From a bacterium (GTDB taxonomy: Bacteria; Patescibacteriota; Minisyncoccia; Phycocordibacterales; UBA12445), in assembly GCA_030648005.1 (NCBI GenBank), contig JAUSIP010000001.1, forward strand, positions 6,662-70,661: a stretch of DNA of 64,000 bases. Direction: 5' to 3'. Position 1 is the first letter of the stretch. Each line of letters begins with the position of its first letter. A program made the translations under genes and the position numbers. Shown piece by piece: positions 5,399 to 23,002 of the stretch. The notes under the pieces were generated by a model that made no database searches, had not been told where the DNA came from, and worked only from the letters and a program-made list of their open reading frames with translations.

Positions 5399-6730
5399 CT
5401 ATCCGCGTCGTTCTCCATCATCCTCAAATTTAAGTAGGACCCTGAATACCGGCGTTTTGCCGGCTAGCTCTTTGTCACCACCCTTCCAGATAGCCATCAC
5501 GACTCCGGAACCTTCGCCCATTTCAGATATTTCAGGAGTAAGCTTGCCTACGAAAATCCCGCTCGCATCTATTGTTCCAATAGGACCCACAACCCTCCAA
5601 TCTACGGAACTTGTGACATCCTCCTTGCTTCCATCACTTAAAACAAGCATCGCCCTAAAGGCAATTTTCTGCTGTTCTGCAAAATCAGAGTTAATGAAAG
5701 TTCTCGACTCTATAATAAGATCAACAGGAGTACCTCGCCTACTTCTTATTATCCCCCCGATCGGACTATCTATTCTCTGTTCAACATTGTTCAATATCTC
5801 TTTCTTAATTTCCGCCCTCACCTCAGCTCTTACCTCCGCTTTTTTTACCGGTTCCGTAATCTTTCTCTCAACTATTTCTCCCACTCTCCTCTCTTCTGTC
5901 TTAATATTAATTTTGGTCTTCAATTCAGTCCGAACTTCTCTCAATGAATCTTTAAGTAACTCCTCACGCAGTTTTTCCCTCAGAACTCCACGTGACTTCA
6001 GATCTTTCACTTGAACTTCGATCTTAGTATCCTCAGACTCGTTGGCATTCAACCACTCTTGATCTCTAGGCACGATACCCGCGCCTGCGCTAGCCGGACT
6101 AACTGCAACGTCCACAGCGACAACCACCTTTTTATTGACTCTAATCTTCTCAACATCATCATTGGTCCACTCGACAAATTTGCCTTCACTTAGAATTATC
6201 GGTTCTTTGCCGACTCGTTCTCCGGTCTTAGGGTCTATTACCTGGAGAGCAACTGTATGTTGGGATCCAAACATCTTAGAGTGCCCTCCCTCCGAACTCA
6301 TACCAAAAGCCGTACCACGTACGGTCGCCACGGCGTTGGATGTCTTCACCTCCCAGACTGAAGCCGGTGTGGCAAGATCTATCACCTTAGACCAAACTTT
6401 CCCGACCGCCAGGCTAACTTTGACAGAAATAGCTCCGCTTGCTTTGTCGTAATTTCCATCATTCAAGGTGATTGTGGTGCCAGAATCCAAACGAAGCACC
6501 GAGCCGTCCAAGAAGTGCACCTTAGCCTCTCCATCGGTGCTTACTACGAGAGTTATCGGGTAGTCCAAACTGTCTCCACTTTTAAGACCAGAAACTTCCC
6601 CCTTAGTGATAGTTATCCACGGCTTTGTCGGAAGCTCTACAACGGGTGGAATCTCCTTTCCATCACCACCCACTAAAGACAGAAACAAAATAGGGATGAA
6701 TAAAACCGCTGCAATAAATATATTTTTCAT
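5399..6730 (-). CDS. Exported FecR-domain protein with C-terminal Ig-like region
   Basis: Signal/TM, DGSVLRLDSGT, VKTSNAVATVRGTAF; C-terminal DGSKEDVTSSVDW...GTIDASG. Confidence 0.85.
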   Translation of the reverse strand: MKNIFIAAVLFIPILFLSLVGGDGKEIPPVVELPTKPWITITKGEVSGLKSGDSLDYPITLVVSTDGEAKVHFLDGSVLRLDSGTTITLNDGNYDKASGAISVKVSLAVGKVWSKVIDLATPASVWEVKTSNAVATVRGTAFGMSSEGGHSKMFGSQHTVALQVIDPKTGERVGKEPIILSEGKFVEWTNDDVEKIRVNKKVVVAVDVAVSPASAGAGIVPRDQEWLNANESEDTKIEVQVKDLKSRGVLREKLREELLKDSLREVRTELKTKINIKTEERRVGEIVERKITEPVKKAEVRAEVRAEIKKEILNNVEQRIDSPIGGIIRSRRGTPVDLIIESRTFINSDFAEQQKIAFRAMLVLSDGSKEDVTSSVDWRVVGPIGTIDASGIFVGKLTPEISEMGEGSGVVMAIWKGGDKELAGKTPVFRVLLKFEDDGERRG

Positions 6731-17173: not shown

Positions 17174-17650
17174 TTATTTGAGTAAAATTCTTTCAAGATC
17201 AGGCTTCCAGCGGGTGAGGAACTCGGTGATGATGTGTCCGCCGTCGTCGCCAGCAGTGGCACCATAGTCGATGAATTGATATCCGCAACTTGTACGACGT
17301 ATATTGTGCCGATGGTACGAATGGAAGTCCACACCGAAGAGATATTGGTATGCATCTTCCGGCAAGCTTTTCAAGGTCGCCGCCCATTCTTCCTTGTCAG
17401 GCTCAACACCGTAGTTACGGCGAACGATACTGAAGAGTCCGAGGCTAAAATACACCGTAGCAAGGTAACCTGCTTTGTTCGCAAGCCAACACTTGTACTC
17501 ACTCCAATTTTGCTGCATTGCGGCGAAGACCAGATCTCGGACTGTTTTAAAATTTCGGCATTTGTAGAGGATCTTCTGCATGTTCGGGATCTTGATGACT
17601 AGGGGCCCAATCAGGATTGCCGCCCGAAAACTTCCATAGTGTATCTCCAT
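17174..17650 (-). CDS. Minimal protein-kinase-like ORFan
   Basis: YGSFR (Gly loop), VIKIP (Lys), NWSE, DFH...HNI, IDYG; GGAG SD and terminator. Confidence 0.55.
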   Translation of the reverse strand: MEIHYGSFRAAILIGPLVIKIPNMQKILYKCRNFKTVRDLVFAAMQQNWSEYKCWLANKAGYLATVYFSLGLFSIVRRNYGVEPDKEEWAATLKSLPEDAYQYLFGVDFHSYHRHNIRRTSCGYQFIDYGATAGDDGGHIITEFLTRWKPDLERILLK

Positions 17651-17815
17651 GAATTTTCAACTCCTTATCTTCCATAAAAAGTATAACAAAAAAAGCCGAC
17701 TAAGTCAATAGCTGGCTTTTTCTTACGCCCCGAGCCGAGTTTTAAATCCTAACGTGCCAGTAAAGGTAAACTTTGTTGCACTGGTATTTTAAAACTCAGC
17801 TCGAAGCTCGAACTC

Positions 17816-17934
17816 GGACTATCCACTTAGCGCATAACTTTGTCGAAAGCTCCATTTGCTTCTCAATGTACTGTTAGTACATCTTCGTCGCAAGATTCGC
17901 TTTCTTCGCGTTCTGCATCTAAGTGTCTAAGTCC
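17816..17934 (-). repeat. ~120-nt structured dispersed repeat, copy C
   Basis: TTAGCGCATAACTTTGTCG...TGTACTGTTAGTACA...TTCTGCATCTAAG. Confidence 0.85.
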
Positions 17935-17941
17935 TTTGTGT

Positions 17942-19336: not shown

Positions 19337-19876
19337 TTACAGTTTTTTTTGAAGAAATTCCCTGAGCTTCTTCTCGTTGGTGATTGGTTCAACTCTAACA
19401 GTCTCCGGATAGATAGGATGACCCGCTTCGTCCTCCTCGTAATCCTTATGTCCATCAATATCTTCCTTACTCAAACCAGCCTGCATAAGAAACTCTTCAA
19501 TGCTCTCTTTGGTATAGCCAGACCATGGAAGATCGGAGTTAGCATACATCAACCTTCCGCACTTGAGGATATTTGAGTAAATAGCATCAGCGTTCTGAAG
19601 AACTCTCTGGCGCAAGATCTCGTGTTCAAGATTTTTGATCCTCTTGTTGTAAGTTGTCTTACCGGCATGCCTTTCGTTGTATTGCGCGATCTGATCATCT
19701 GTGAAGCATCGTTCTAGGAGTTCAGCGAGCTTCCTGACCGGATCCTTGATCAGCTTGAAGCCACGTCGCTCAACAACCTCGACATAAGCTTCCAGATCTG
19801 CCCATGCATCCACGAACCGCTCCTCGATCTCTTCTGTATCTTCCTGAGACAAAACTTCGACTTCTGATGTACTCAT
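19337..19876 (-). CDS. Hypothetical acidic protein (ORFan cassette)
   Basis: Start moved to MSTSEV (GGAGG SD); terminator hairpin 19298-19318. Confidence 0.7.
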   Translation of the reverse strand: MSTSEVEVLSQEDTEEIEERFVDAWADLEAYVEVVERRGFKLIKDPVRKLAELLERCFTDDQIAQYNERHAGKTTYNKRIKNLEHEILRQRVLQNADAIYSNILKCGRLMYANSDLPWSGYTKESIEEFLMQAGLSKEDIDGHKDYEEDEAGHPIYPETVRVEPITNEKKLREFLQKKL

Positions 19877-20010: not shown

Positions 20011-20047
20011 TAAAAAAACCGGTTGCAAACAGAGTGTCTGCAACCGG
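20011..20047 (-). terminator. Rho-independent terminator closing the Ubl operon
   Basis: CCGGTTGCA...TGCAACCGG stem followed by a U-tract on the minus strand. Confidence 0.75.
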
Positions 20048-20069: not shown

Positions 20070-20309
20070 CTAAGAACCTTGCGGGCGTTCGTGAACTGCG
20101 ACGATCTTCGATGCTGAAGTCACGCGCGTTTCAGGCGTGGCAGGCTTGCCGTCGACCGACAGGTTCTTCTTGTCGAGGCTGACTCCAGCCTCCTTGAGCA
20201 CCTCGGCGAGCGTGGCGCTCGCTTCGATAGTGACCGTCTTGGTGATCGGTTTTCCCGAAGTGGGGACGACCTCAAGTTGAACTTCGAAAGTCTTCTTGGT
20301 CTTGGTCAT
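20070..20309 (-). CDS. Ubiquitin-like (beta-grasp, ThiS/MoaD-like) protein
   Basis: 79 aa; TVTIEASATLAEVLKEAGV...LSVDGKPATPETRV...VAVHERPQGS; SD GGGGTG; downstream of an E1-like gene. Confidence 0.75.
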   Translation of the reverse strand: MTKTKKTFEVQLEVVPTSGKPITKTVTIEASATLAEVLKEAGVSLDKKNLSVDGKPATPETRVTSASKIVAVHERPQGS

Positions 20310-20353
20310 TTTCCTTCACCCCCTCTTTTTTGTCTTGTTTTTTTTGTAAAGAA

Positions 20354-20992
20354 CTATACTTCTTGAAAGTACCCGCACAACATCCTCAGATGCCGCTTGA
20401 ATTTACTCTGTTTGAAGAACATTGTCAAGGCAGCGCAGGCGACGTTGGCCGCGGTACTGCTGATGTGTATCGCACCATGGTTGCCGCACATAGACCGGGT
20501 AGCTTCTACCGAGGAATATCGGATGAAATTCTCATAATAATCCACGTCATCCTTATCGCACGTGCGAATAGCGAACACTTCGATATATTCAGCGTTGATT
20601 CTCGTATCAACGAAGATCCCAACGAGAGGATTGTCCTTAACAGCCTTCCAGATGAGCTGGCGCGCCTCCATAGTATCAACACAAGCAACGACCGCGGTTT
20701 TGAGCGGTTCACCGTTGTACATCTTGGGTATAACCCTAATCTGAACTCCTGACGCTTCTTCCACGATCTCACTTAACGCTTCGACCTTCAGCCTCAAAAT
20801 ATGCTTCTGCCGGAACTCCGACATCGGCACGTTATGCGAGGCCACTTCGTCGCCATCCAAAACCGTAAGATCAGCGCACCCTTCTCTGGCGAGCATGATA
20901 GTGAGTCTACTGCCGACTGAACCGGCGCCAATGATAGTAACAGGTCGGAAGAGATCCGGATCAACGATCTTATTCTGTGCATCGAAATTCAT
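20354..20992 (-). CDS. ThiF/E1-family adenylyltransferase
   Basis: IIGAGSVGS, DGDEVASHN, LKVEAL, CVDTMEAR, Cys in SMCG; ATGA-coupled to the upstream gene. Confidence 0.9.
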   Translation of the reverse strand: MNFDAQNKIVDPDLFRPVTIIGAGSVGSRLTIMLAREGCADLTVLDGDEVASHNVPMSEFRQKHILRLKVEALSEIVEEASGVQIRVIPKMYNGEPLKTAVVACVDTMEARQLIWKAVKDNPLVGIFVDTRINAEYIEVFAIRTCDKDDVDYYENFIRYSSVEATRSMCGNHGAIHISSTAANVACAALTMFFKQSKFKRHLRMLCGYFQEV

Positions 20993-22413
20993 TGTCCTAT
21001 GCAAGGCACACCTCCTTCGTCCAGTATCACCTTGATCGGCCATTCAGCGATCTTGTGCAGAGCCGTCTGATCTTCGTAACCTTCGAAAAGCCAACGAGTG
21101 AAGTAGCCGATGCCGTCTGCGTATCGATGCTCCTTGATCGCATCCTTGATCGCCGTGCCGGCATTGCCAAAACAGGGCGTGCCTTCTTTATTGATATGAG
21201 GATGAGGAACTCCTTCCGGATGAAACCGATCGAGACTCCAGATATAGAAGTCGCCGTTTCTATGGATTGCGAAAGCGAACCTGCCAAGCTGATGAGTATT
21301 GCCCGCATTAGTAATGTCAGCTCCGATAGTAGTAACGCGGATCATATCTTCAGCAAGCGATAGTTCCGATACATATGGATTCGAACGGATCCTGCGCCAC
21401 TGCCCCTTGAGAGATCTGAACAATTCATCTTTGGGCAGGGCATTGCTTACTGTCTTACTCAAGCGCTGAAGATTGAAACATTCACGCTCATTGATAGCCA
21501 GAGTCATCCTCAGATCTTCAATCTCTTGTTGTATCTTCTGCACCTCTCTGTCTATGCCGCCACTGACGGTGCTTATCCATTTTGTTGTAACGTCGACAAA
21601 CCTCTTGCGATTCAGACGGAGCATTTTGTCAGATGGCTTAGCTCCACCTTGCAGAGCCTGATAACGGCGTAGGGTCACAGCCAGAGCATTATCCAAAATT
21701 TTCAAACTAGTAAGAGAATTGAAAAATTCAACCACGCAAAACAGAAAATACCAGTTATTGCCAACTATCTGCGCAAGATCGTTCTCCCCGTCGCCGACGA
21801 ACTCCCCTCTTCCGGGAGTACCGGAGAAGGTCAGAACACCGTTGCCTTCTTTGGTATCCAACTGAAGGTCGAAGGCGCGGCGTAGATACTTGCTCTTTGA
21901 ATATCCGGGCGAATAGCTCCAAGGGAAAATATTGATCAGATTAGGCTTGTCGGGTAGCGGAGGCCTACCTATATCGCGTTTCTCGGCGTAAAAATCTATG
22001 TCCAATCCTCCGGCAAGCCTAGAGAAATTCTCTAAGATAATTCTGATGCTGGAATAGGGAGCTTCTTCGATCGTCTTCTTATCGTCTTCCTTCTCTGACA
22101 AGGGGATGATCCTGATATTTCCGGTCTTGATCCCAACGTACGGAACAGTGCGATTGCCCCACTTGGCATTCTTGGCATTAATGACATTTGGGTAAGGAGC
22201 TTGCCCGATACCGACAATCAGAAGAACGTCAATGAAGGTCATCCTCGCTTCCGCCACATTCGCGCACTGGAAGATGTAAGCATCGAGCTCGTATGGCCCT
22301 ACTCGTACTGTCCGCCTCTTGAAAGGGATCCCCTTCTTTGTGAACTCTTGAGTATGAGGCTCAGCCACGAGAGCCGGCAAGGCGAAAATAGGTGTTTTCA
22401 GTCCGGGAACCAT
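20989..22413 (-). CDS. Large protein with a coiled coil and a C-terminal E2/UBC-like domain
   Basis: PHPHINKEGTPCFGN resembles the UBC HPNI..G.IC motif; heptad segment DREVQKIQQEIEDLRMTL; GGAGG SD. Confidence 0.7.
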   Translation of the reverse strand: MVPGLKTPIFALPALVAEPHTQEFTKKGIPFKRRTVRVGPYELDAYIFQCANVAEARMTFIDVLLIVGIGQAPYPNVINAKNAKWGNRTVPYVGIKTGNIRIIPLSEKEDDKKTIEEAPYSSIRIILENFSRLAGGLDIDFYAEKRDIGRPPLPDKPNLINIFPWSYSPGYSKSKYLRRAFDLQLDTKEGNGVLTFSGTPGRGEFVGDGENDLAQIVGNNWYFLFCVVEFFNSLTSLKILDNALAVTLRRYQALQGGAKPSDKMLRLNRKRFVDVTTKWISTVSGGIDREVQKIQQEIEDLRMTLAINERECFNLQRLSKTVSNALPKDELFRSLKGQWRRIRSNPYVSELSLAEDMIRVTTIGADITNAGNTHQLGRFAFAIHRNGDFYIWSLDRFHPEGVPHPHINKEGTPCFGNAGTAIKDAIKEHRYADGIGYFTRWLFEGYEDQTALHKIAEWPIKVILDEGGVPCIGQ

Positions 22414-22527
22414 CTCTGCCTCCTTTGGCCCTCCGTAGCTTTATGCGTAGGGGGCCTTTATTTCGTACAGTGTCAAGGAGCACTCAAACCGATGAGATAA
22501 TATCAGGAATAATTGATTTAGTCAATG

Positions 22528-22614
22528 CGGAGGTGGGAGGATTTGAACCTCCGATACCCTTTCGGGTATGCCAGTTTTCGAAACTGGTGATTTCAACCAC
22601 TCACCCACACCTCC
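22528..22614 (-). tRNA. tRNA-Ser(CGA)
   Basis: Cloverleaf with long variable arm; anticodon arm CCAGT-TTCGAAA-ACTGG; GGTTCAAATCC. Confidence 0.95.
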
Positions 22615-22685: not shown

Positions 22686-22793
22686 GGCCCTATCGTTCCC
22701 GATTTTATTACGATTTCGTTACAGCGAAATCTCCATAAAATCGAGGATCCTCGACCCTGTGGGGTCGGGACTATCGGTTAGGACACGGCCTTT
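22686..22793 (+). pseudogene. tRNA-Glu 5'-half copy interrupted by a 74-nt twin-hairpin insertion (22697-22770)
   Basis: GGCCCTATCGT + insert + CTATCGGTTAGGACACGGCCTTT matches 22931-22964. Confidence 0.85.
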
Positions 22794-22930
22794 GAGAGGT
22801 GAGGATGGGGTAAGGGGTCCCATCCGCAAGACCTTTTGAGGTAGTTTGCGAGCTAGTGAAGCAAAATATCCAAAAGGTGTACTGCTCCCGTAGGGAGGGA
22901 AACGCAGTGAGGCATTTTAAAAAACTATAC

Positions 22931-23002
22931 GGCCCTATCGTCTATCGGTTAGGACACGGCCTTTTCAAGGCTGGAAGCAGAGTTCGACTCTCTGTAGGGT
23001 CA
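22931..23002 (+). tRNA. tRNA-Glu(TTC)
   Basis: Anticodon arm CGGCC-TTTTCAA-GGCTG; T-arm CAGAG-TTCGACT-CTCTG; no encoded CCA. Confidence 0.93.

Follow-up and report, generated by a model that had tools for sequence, protein, structure and literature searches.

Bacterial conjugation of ubiquitin-like proteins (Ubls) through an activating enzyme (E1) and a conjugating enzyme (E2) is known from the Bil, Bub and CBASS (antiphage signaling based on cyclic oligonucleotides) pathways. Bil types I and II have a separate Ubl, a cysteine E2 and a cysteine E1 without an E3 (10.1101/2023.09.04.556158; PMC10557695); their JAB protein is needed for defense, the Ubl has a conserved glycine, and the type II E1, BilD, is a Zn-binding protein of IAD-AAD-CYS architecture. 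Bub combines a homodimer-type adenylation domain with an E2 and a Ubl, its type II lacking a JAB, and uses tyrosine and serine oxyesters, a BubE protease and a glycine-ended Ubl (10.1101/2024.11.21.623953). In CBASS, Cap2 is an E2-E1 fusion with a crossover-loop cysteine that acts on a CD-NTase and has a JAB partner (PMC10097602; 10.1101/2022.03.31.486616). For bacterial as for eukaryotic Ubls, the literature describes a terminal glycine as obligatory (10.1101/2023.09.04.556158). The tested exception is alanine in CBASS, where a change of glycine to serine kills activity (PMC10097602), and Cap2 is the only characterized protein-conjugating E1 that we encountered to accept such a non-glycine end. 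Here we describe a three-gene E2-E1-Ubl operon whose Ubl ends in serine. It lies at positions 20,070 to 22,413 of a 64,000-nucleotide stretch (the window; positions 6,662 to 70,661 of contig JAUSIP010000001.1, assembly GCA_030648005.1) from a patescibacterial genome of 757 kb that is 97% complete (our contig C12 and genome G000).

The operon is real and conserved, and may perform E1-E2-Ubl conjugation with what is possibly a new terminal chemistry. It falls outside the definitions of Bil, Bub, CBASS, PRTRC and sulfur-relay systems, yet judged from its sequence should work as an E1-E2-Ubl cascade. Its gene complement resembles Bil but lacks the JAB; the Ubl, or tag, ends in serine, the E2 has extra domains within its 474 residues, and the E1 is a 212-residue single-domain protein without CxxC motifs. 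PADLOC and NCBIfam gave no match to the E2 and none to any Bil model. Unlike Bub, both enzymes carry an invariant cysteine, there is no fourth gene and the tag bears a serine; the crossover-loop Tyr, the Ser-His E2 without Cys and the DUF6527/BubE gene of Bub are all absent. Compared with type II CBASS, E1 and E2 are separate genes, the PADLOC E1-E2 models match the Rossmann part only, and there is no CD-NTase or effector (Pfam and PADLOC scans of the operon neighbors found no CD-NTase). PRTRC or Iyer class 6d membership is not supported either: TIGR03736 scores 32 bits against a cut-off of 145, and Pfam Prok-E2 models match none of 46 E2 homologs or 39 E2 domains. The crAss-type E2 is a marginal match (hhalign probability 2%).

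More remote systems share single components. The UBA5/UFC1/UFM1 pathway and UBE2L3 supply the best PDB sequence matches of the E1 and the E2 domain, at the level of remote similarity only; UBA5/UFM1 and canonical UBC systems use glycine-ended tags, E3s and proteases, unlike this operon. SAMP2, ThiS, MoaD and TtuB share the fold and tail register of the tag, but end in Gly-Gly and work without an E2. MccB is an E1-like enzyme that activates a non-glycine C-terminus, but its substrate is a heptapeptide rather than a beta-grasp protein and it has no E2 (PMC11118369). Our comparison, which also drew on Gong et al. (10.1101/2024.11.21.623966) and Iyer et al. (PMC1779556), found no account of the three-gene operon or of a serine-ended tag in the openly accessible texts; the accessible parts of PMC11354881 and PMC7159879 hold nothing on the E2-E1-Ubl family.

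The Ubl carries serine at the position of the activated glycine

The 79-residue product of the third gene had been proposed to be a beta-grasp Ubl, and profile searches bear this out. A mixed family profile matches SAMP2 (5LDA) end to end (E 1.6e-8), with further matches to PF1061, ubiquitin, SUMO, TtuB and MoaD; the single sequence matches SAMP2 weakly (E 1e-3). The preliminary description overlooked the end of the tag, where Ser79 (codon 20073-20075) occupies the terminal-glycine position. The last column of the mixed profile falls on the final glycine of SAMP2. Measured from a conserved D/N-G turn to the C-terminus, SAMP2 and a number of the tags ending in Ser, Gly or Asn have the same length of 26 residues, and from this anchor tags with these three ends align without gaps; the window's own tag has 27, the additional residue lying within the last strand. 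Counted from this turn, the register puts Ser79 at the place of the activated glycine.

All 61 homologs retrieved with the tags have serine rather than glycine at this position, 60 of them ending in Gly-Ser and one in His-Ser-Ser, and Glu74 and Arg75 are present in every one at a mean pairwise identity of 41%. Tags reached through the E2, which come from 15 distinct loci with complete tags and are free of any bias from a tail-containing query, likewise all end in serine. Readthrough into a longer product was rejected: the 15 loci use TAA, TAG and TGA five times each, and the sequence beyond the stop codon is unrelated. The tags are basic, with a net charge of +1 to +9 in 60 of 61.

These tails could also be explained by conventional chemistry after trimming, in which a peptidase encoded elsewhere cuts off Ser79 and the exposed Gly78 enters a cascade as in Bil. 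Gly78 is almost as conserved as Ser79 (60/61), BilC of E. aridi removes a single Ala after Gly97 (PMC10557695), and glycine followed by an extension is found in many four-gene relatives of the operon (16 of 56 curated tails). However, Bil extensions are described as non-conserved and up to nine residues long (PMC10557695), whereas here the last residue is invariant, the length is fixed and the register sets serine at the terminal position. One intact operon (L104) ends in His-Ser-Ser and has no glycine to expose. The family JAB is missing from 10 of 11 genomes with the operon (the search did not extend to unrelated housekeeping carboxypeptidases), and in the N-terminal region of the E2 no His, Cys, Ser or Glu is conserved at 60% or more so as to hint at a protease fused there. 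Trimming is thus, in our judgment, quite unlikely.

The E1 is a minimal ThiF/UBA5-like protein

The E1 has a ThiF domain (E 4e-12) with, as first read from the sequence, an intact Rossmann motif (GAGSVG), Cys169 (codon 20486-20488) and no Zn-binding CxxC. Cys169 is kept in 43/43 close homologs, among which a CxxC occurs just once. The best PDB match of a wide E1 profile is UBA5 (E 3e-20), and G22, G24, G27, D46, N54, K69, D106, R111, R131 and C169 are invariant (30/30) in that profile; within the close homologs, Asn54, Lys69 and Arg131 are found in 43/43 and Asp106 in 42/43. The GxGxxG Rossmann motif, the Asp/Asn/Lys/Asp nucleotide residues and the crossover-loop cysteine of E1/ThiF enzymes are accordingly all in place. 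The GAGSVG motif was rejected as a marker of serine-ended tags because it also accompanies Gly- and Ala-ended ones. A second ThiF protein of the genome (391 residues; C4:29256-30431, L001:1159-2334) belongs to a different family and is unrelated to the operon; its gene sits upstream of that for a membrane protein with a sensor-like N-terminus.

The E2 couples a UBC-type domain to an unmatched N-terminal region

The preliminary description had noted PHPHINKEGTPCFGN with Cys414, and the motif is present. Cys414 is kept in all 134 aligned near-full-length homologs, together with His404, His406, Gly416 and Tyr446, whereas the remaining four cysteines are kept in just 4-6 of the 134. A UBC-type fold for the C-terminal part is supported by a profile of 39 C-terminal domains, distant relatives included, which matches human UBE2L3 (E 1.9e-4), a match that appeared only with such a domain-only profile. 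The alignment places HPH over HPN and Cys414 over the catalytic cysteine, and of 27 PDB sequences matched up to E 10, 24 are E2 enzymes or variants. A low-confidence Atlas model (predicted local distance difference test score, pLDDT, 0.53) of residues 330-465 may point the same way, with E2-CBASS as its best named structural neighbor at a template modeling (TM) score of 0.56, ahead of a UQ_con cluster (0.53) and Prok-E2_D (0.52), all three below the Atlas bar for naming.

The N-terminal part of the protein resists assignment, as it did in the preliminary description: some 250 residues match nothing. Nothing significant was found for the full-length protein in Pfam, NCBIfam, PADLOC or PHROGs, the same kind of search on 46 homologs gave weak helical matches only, and a full-length profile found only coiled-coil proteins in the PDB. 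The coiled coil itself, also called earlier, is recovered as a heptad-scan peak at residues 287-317. The single E2 sequence has no match in viral contigs, GenBank phages or plasmids; its relatives number 362 at E<=0.001 among 50%-identity representatives. Relatives of this E2 may reportedly have been classified by Burroughs, Iyer and Aravind in 2011.

The N-terminal region includes a middle module (residues ~100-252) that has a single PDB match, at E 1.4, and none in Pfam. It is present in four-gene relatives too, and is repeated in tandem in a 1281-residue relative. We read the module as probably a non-catalytic adaptor, since none of its columns is invariant across 27 sequences of the wide family; the best-kept polar residues of the N-terminal region are Gln215, Tyr222, Asp208 and Arg202. 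Three loci show further arrangements of these elements. The 1281-residue E2 (L113:3894-7739, genome G979) repeats the module several times in tandem; at L109 it additionally forms a gene of its own upstream; and in L110 two E2 genes flank JAB-E1-Ubl.

Gene order, neighborhoods and distribution

In all 18 other loci of the branch (one a near-duplicate, and three with a tag that runs off the contig) the order E2-E1-Ubl is kept and no JAB was detected. The window's genome is likewise negative for JAB by Pfam and by the family profile, in line with the claim that the system lacks one. Only 1 of 11 branch genomes has a family JAB, which lies within a separate Gly-Gly cassette there, and positive controls were recovered 3/3. 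One genome, G1060 (L005, L119), carries a Ser-type three-gene and a Gly-Gly four-gene operon, both with the same long E2 architecture. The flanks of the operon differ at every locus. Housekeeping genes predominate among 81 neighbors scanned with Pfam, in which lexA, uvrA-uvrC and an RNA-ligase gene each appear a single time. As single cases, a Ser-type operon (L105:5939-8847) comes immediately after uvrC and a gene for a uvrA-like ATPase, all with the same orientation, and at L003 lexA lies just downstream on the other strand.

The tag could instead serve a sulfur relay, as a ThiS/MoaD/TtuB-type carrier for cofactor synthesis or tRNA thiolation: its closest solved relatives include SAMP2, TtuB and MoaD, and the genome has MnmA and a cysteine-desulfurase-family gene. 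Against this, the operon invariably includes an E2, whose cysteine is invariant, the tag has no Gly-Gly end and the E1 has no rhodanese domain. No thiamine, molybdopterin or thio-tRNA genes adjoin the operon, as already remarked in the preliminary description; sulfur genes are absent from the 81 neighbors scanned; and ThiS, ThiG, MoaE and the TtcA/TtuA family find no match in the genome. We give this explanation almost no credence. A UPF0176/rhodanese gene does lie 700 nucleotides upstream on the other strand but is not seen at the homologous operons, and ATP_bind_3 (TilS/TtcA) also has no match in the genome.

The operon is rare and patchily distributed. A narrow profile finds it in 3 of 401 genomes of the phylum. 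With a wide profile, 13 of 401 genomes in the window's class are positive, the branch itself being represented only by the window's genome, and 13 of 301 in the sister class, five of them from this branch. A search of 40 relatives, four of them from the same genus, did not turn up the E1. Homologs are labeled Candidatus Lloydbacteria, Candidatus Uhrbacteria, Parcubacteria and Patescibacteria group, which makes the suggested host, a member of the Patescibacteria (Candidate Phyla Radiation, CPR), likely; two tags are labeled Candidatus Eisenbacteria and Candidatus Binatia (both labels unchecked). By score, at least 154 E2 homologs are nearer to the three-gene branch; most share 20-45% identity with the query.

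A branch among phage and patescibacterial four-gene cassettes

The relatives are uncharacterized cassettes of phages and Patescibacteria that have the Bil complement of E2, JAB, E1 and Ubl. They share the E1 family, and many have a long E2 with middle module, coiled coil and HPH...CxG; they differ in the JAB between E2 and E1 and in their tags, whose terminal position is taken by Gly, Ala or Asn. At 20 other bacterial loci a JAB lies next to the E1, nearly always as E2-JAB-E1-Ubl. Of 34 viral loci found by E1 alignment, all have a JAB hit nearby, with a profile seeded from these loci themselves, and 16 have an E2-domain hit. The JAB call was confirmed by invariant Glu, His-x-His, Ser and Asp and by a Prok-JAB match in 10 of 20 members.

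Among 56 hand-curated tails, 24 have Gly, 15 Ser, nine Ala and eight Asn at the terminal position, which is our own assignment where an extension follows; those that end at the stop codon comprise 15 Ser, eight Gly, seven Asn and four Ala. Some tails (KIKSN, EAKNA, KTDNA) are wholly without Gly in their last residues. The Asn and Ala ends at the stop beside Gly indicate that the wider family tolerates non-glycine ends. A serine end was not seen at any of 21 viral loci with a curated tag, for which no viral scan aimed at the Ubl was made. In an IQ-TREE phylogeny of 57 E1s the 15 Ser-type, JAB-less E1s form one branch, supported at 100/100 on a stem of 0.76. Although the tree has no known root, JAB-bearing relatives occupy all other branches, so that loss of the JAB is the simpler reading.

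Such an origin raises the question of decay. The operon could be a remnant of a phage cassette that lost its JAB and its E1 arginines and with them conjugation, and the parent cassette is indeed common on phage contigs and the arginines are missing (see below). A decaying gene set would not, however, be expected to leave so many divergent E2 homologs on the side of the branch, an order kept in 18 loci, or an invariant Cys414, Cys169 and ERxxGS tail, and we regard this as very improbable.

Several relatives deserve record. An Asn-tag sister group (L094, L109, L110, L112, L113, L029, L045, L038) retains the JAB, seven of its tags end at the stop, and its E1s have a signature of their own (Thr26 7/8, His6 7/8, Glu129 8/8); by analogy, MccB-like succinimide chemistry is a possibility there. 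At two phage loci (L029:9177-9842, L045:9176-9841) one gene strings together Ubl units in tandem; both units of L029 end in KVQGA, the second at the stop, resembling an Ala-ended polyubiquitin precursor, and a second E2-like gene lies ~1.2 kb beyond the tandem-Ubl gene. The crAss-like phage cr111_1 and Flavobacterium phage FpV4 (L019:2773-6648, L020:2607-6618) have consecutive genes for a candidate Ubl, an E2-like protein, a JAB and a ThiF, whose annotation reads hypothetical protein or thiamine biosynthesis protein. In phage loci L041, L042 and L057, several short related open reading frames (ORFs) lie between JAB and E1.

With a little less than even confidence, we would place the operon as one branch of a large phage and patescibacterial family in which Ala, Asn or Ser has replaced the supposedly obligatory terminal glycine, with a separate E1 active-site signature in each case, the present branch activating and transferring a serine end without a protease to mature or remove the tag and using a new repeatable E2-fused domain to pick the target.

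Proposed mechanism

Taking as our basis the assignment of all three domains, the pair of invariant cysteines, the register of the tail, the conserved gene order and the absence of the family JAB, we lean modestly toward the following account. By analogy with known E1 and E2 chemistry, the E1 would adenylate the Ser79 carboxylate directly, and the tag would be held as a thioester on Cys169 and then on Cys414, from which the E2 would conjugate it to a target, probably a protein lysine to give an isopeptide. The anatomy suggests that the N-terminal module and coiled coil replace an E3, providing target binding and E2 oligomerization, and the module would choose the target. The tag would be mature as translated, which would make the ancestral JAB dispensable, and conjugation, with no enzyme for removal, would probably be irreversible. 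An invariant serine at the terminal-glycine position likely explains why the JAB could be lost. MccB offers a chemical precedent: Asn is its native end, and this E1-like enzyme also releases pyrophosphate when stimulated by Ser-, Ala-, Thr- or Gly-ended peptides (PMC11118369). Analogy with Bil and CBASS, together with the patchy distribution, makes a defense role plausible. That distribution and the phage-borne parent cassette lead us to guess that the system may act in conflicts with phage or mobile elements, the weakest step of the account and one that could about equally be right or wrong.

Several observations weigh against this account. The 61-homolog search used 15 tags as query with a profile that includes the serine tail, so its count is biased toward serine ends; Gly78 is nearly as well conserved as Ser79; and the BilA precursor of E. 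aridi shows that glycine plus one residue can be trimmed (PMC10557695). Cap2 rejects a tag with glycine changed to serine (PMC10097602). In the E1, Cys169 aligns with the EGVC cysteine of UBA5 only in a sub-threshold segment, and neither of the ATP-contacting arginines (the N-terminal Arg acting in trans and the Arg after the conserved Asn) is present. The loop after Asn54 has no Arg, a trait of the whole family, and in this branch position 57 is Met, Pro or Ala where UBA5 has Arg; an Arg or Lys at positions 4-5 is found in none of 15 branch E1s against 37 of 41 relatives. These losses make normal adenylation uncertain: the N-terminal Arg of type II Bil E1 is called key (PMC10557695), and an Arg mutant serves as adenylation-dead control in Bub (10.1101/2024.11.21.623953). 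The invariant Arg131 may stand in for them. Serine end, JAB loss and E1 changes have a single origin on the tree and hence give no independent evidence of co-evolution, and one separate JAB-less cassette (L115:4341-6005, genome G809, without family JAB), with a divergent short E2-like protein of 241 residues, has a Gly-ended tag, so that serine is not required for JAB loss. No candidate target of the tag was found. Finally, the phage-defense role suggested at first gains nothing from the neighborhoods, in which a PADLOC scan of 57 proteins found no coherent defense system and no defense neighbors.

The changes in the E1 can also be read as a sign of altered chemistry, in which the cascade uses the serine end yet yields something other than a standard lysine isopeptide: the acceptor could be a lipid, nucleotide or hydroxyl, or the hydroxyl of the serine could participate, as the Asn side chain does in the MccB reaction. 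Besides the loss of the N-terminal Arg/Lys, all 15 branch E1s have Ser58 in place of a Gln kept in 38 of 41 relatives and have gained His172 beside Cys169; the Asn-ended relatives have an E1 signature of their own; the tags are basic; and Bub shows that bacterial cascades can switch chemistry (10.1101/2024.11.21.623953). Yet both catalytic cysteines and HPH are invariant and canonically placed, none of the 81 neighbors scanned is a conserved lipid- or nucleotide-related gene, and the three proteins have no transmembrane stretch. We consider altered chemistry unlikely, and continue to lean toward direct use of Ser79 in a thioester cascade.

The locus and its surroundings

Coordinates are collected in Table 1. 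The layout given in the preliminary description is largely upheld: the three genes are co-oriented on the minus strand, the E2 and E1 genes are coupled through an ATGA overlap (20989-20992), a terminator-like hairpin of the operon's own follows the last gene, and the first ATG lies 114 nucleotides past the tRNA-Ser 3' end (~115 had been stated). Shine-Dalgarno (SD) sites are clear for the E2 (GGAGG) and the Ubl (GAGGGGG), but weak for the E1, which depends on the overlap. The hairpin and promoter matches should be read against the whole region, where terminator-like sites (6 against 3.9+/-1.7 in shuffles) and promoter-like sites (7 against 5.4+/-2.6) show no excess. The three genes, which together encode 765 residues, have G+C contents of 0.49, 0.50 and 0.57 against 0.44 for the genome. 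Rfam gave no match beyond tRNAs above the gathering score, and 13 leaders share no upstream motif above shuffles except SD-like and T-rich words (starts are approximate, and the window's own leader was truncated to 28 nucleotides).

Table 1. Features of the operon and the adjacent tRNA gene (window coordinates)
Feature	Position	Strand	Remark
E2 gene (474 residues; N-terminal region without assignment, coiled coil, C-terminal UBC-type domain)	20989..22413	-	
E2: module of ~150 residues, residues ~100-252 (PPG, GRG, Q-x-G-x-x-x-Y motifs)	21658..22116	-	probably adaptor
E2: predicted coiled coil, residues ~287-318	21460..21555	-	heptad scan; full-length PDB profile matches
E2: UBC/E2 domain, residues 330-460; His404-Pro-His406, Cys414 (codon 21172-21174)	21034..21426	-	UBE2L3 profile match
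ThiF/UBA5-like minimal E1 gene (212 residues from ATG at 20992; without Zn sites)	20354..20992	-	
Single beta-grasp Ubl gene (79 residues, ends ERPQGS)	20070..20309	-	
Intrinsic-terminator-like hairpin at operon end	20019..20047	-	13 pairs and T run
Sigma-70-like promoter match, 10/12, TG extension	22497..22525	-	consensus match only
tRNA-Ser(CGA), outside the system	22527..22614	-	3' flank is a variable-cargo site within the genus

A special link to tRNA-Ser did not hold up: a tRNA lies beside only two of 17 other branch loci, tRNA-Leu in both, and the tRNA 3' end is not duplicated. Other genes occupy the tRNA-Ser flank in three of the 40 E1-negative relatives, so the site accepts variable cargo. 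The proposal of a minimal protein-conjugation system with a possibly novel E2-fused domain is supported as regards the E2, the E1, the Ubl, the missing JAB, the lack of a sulfur-relay context, the patescibacterial type of host and the unmatched N-terminal region, but not as regards the tRNA link and defense.

A 179-residue acidic orphan ORF (19337-19876, minus strand) lies between the operon and a DEAD-box helicase gene and has its own SD, promoter-like site and terminator; with these signals, no homolog beside other operons and no family match, it was rejected as an operon member. A ~110-nucleotide element (~17815-17935), upstream of an ORF at 17174-17650, has 72-85% matches at many places in genomes of the same genus and family and is possibly a dispersed repeat or non-coding RNA. 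A degenerate tRNA-Glu-like stretch (22737-22900), sharing a common 'ctatcggttaggacacggcc' segment, precedes the real tRNA-Glu (22931-23002), and similar stretches are also present in relatives.

Implications

With Gly-, Ala-, Asn- and Ser-ended sister branches, this family makes the glycine rule testable by swapping tails and E1 pocket residues, and the operon has a possible use as an orthogonal C-terminal ligation tool. It further points to a domain outside current classifications that may act in place of an E3, and to a protein-modification pathway in the Patescibacteria, organisms with very small genomes and few known regulatory or defense systems.

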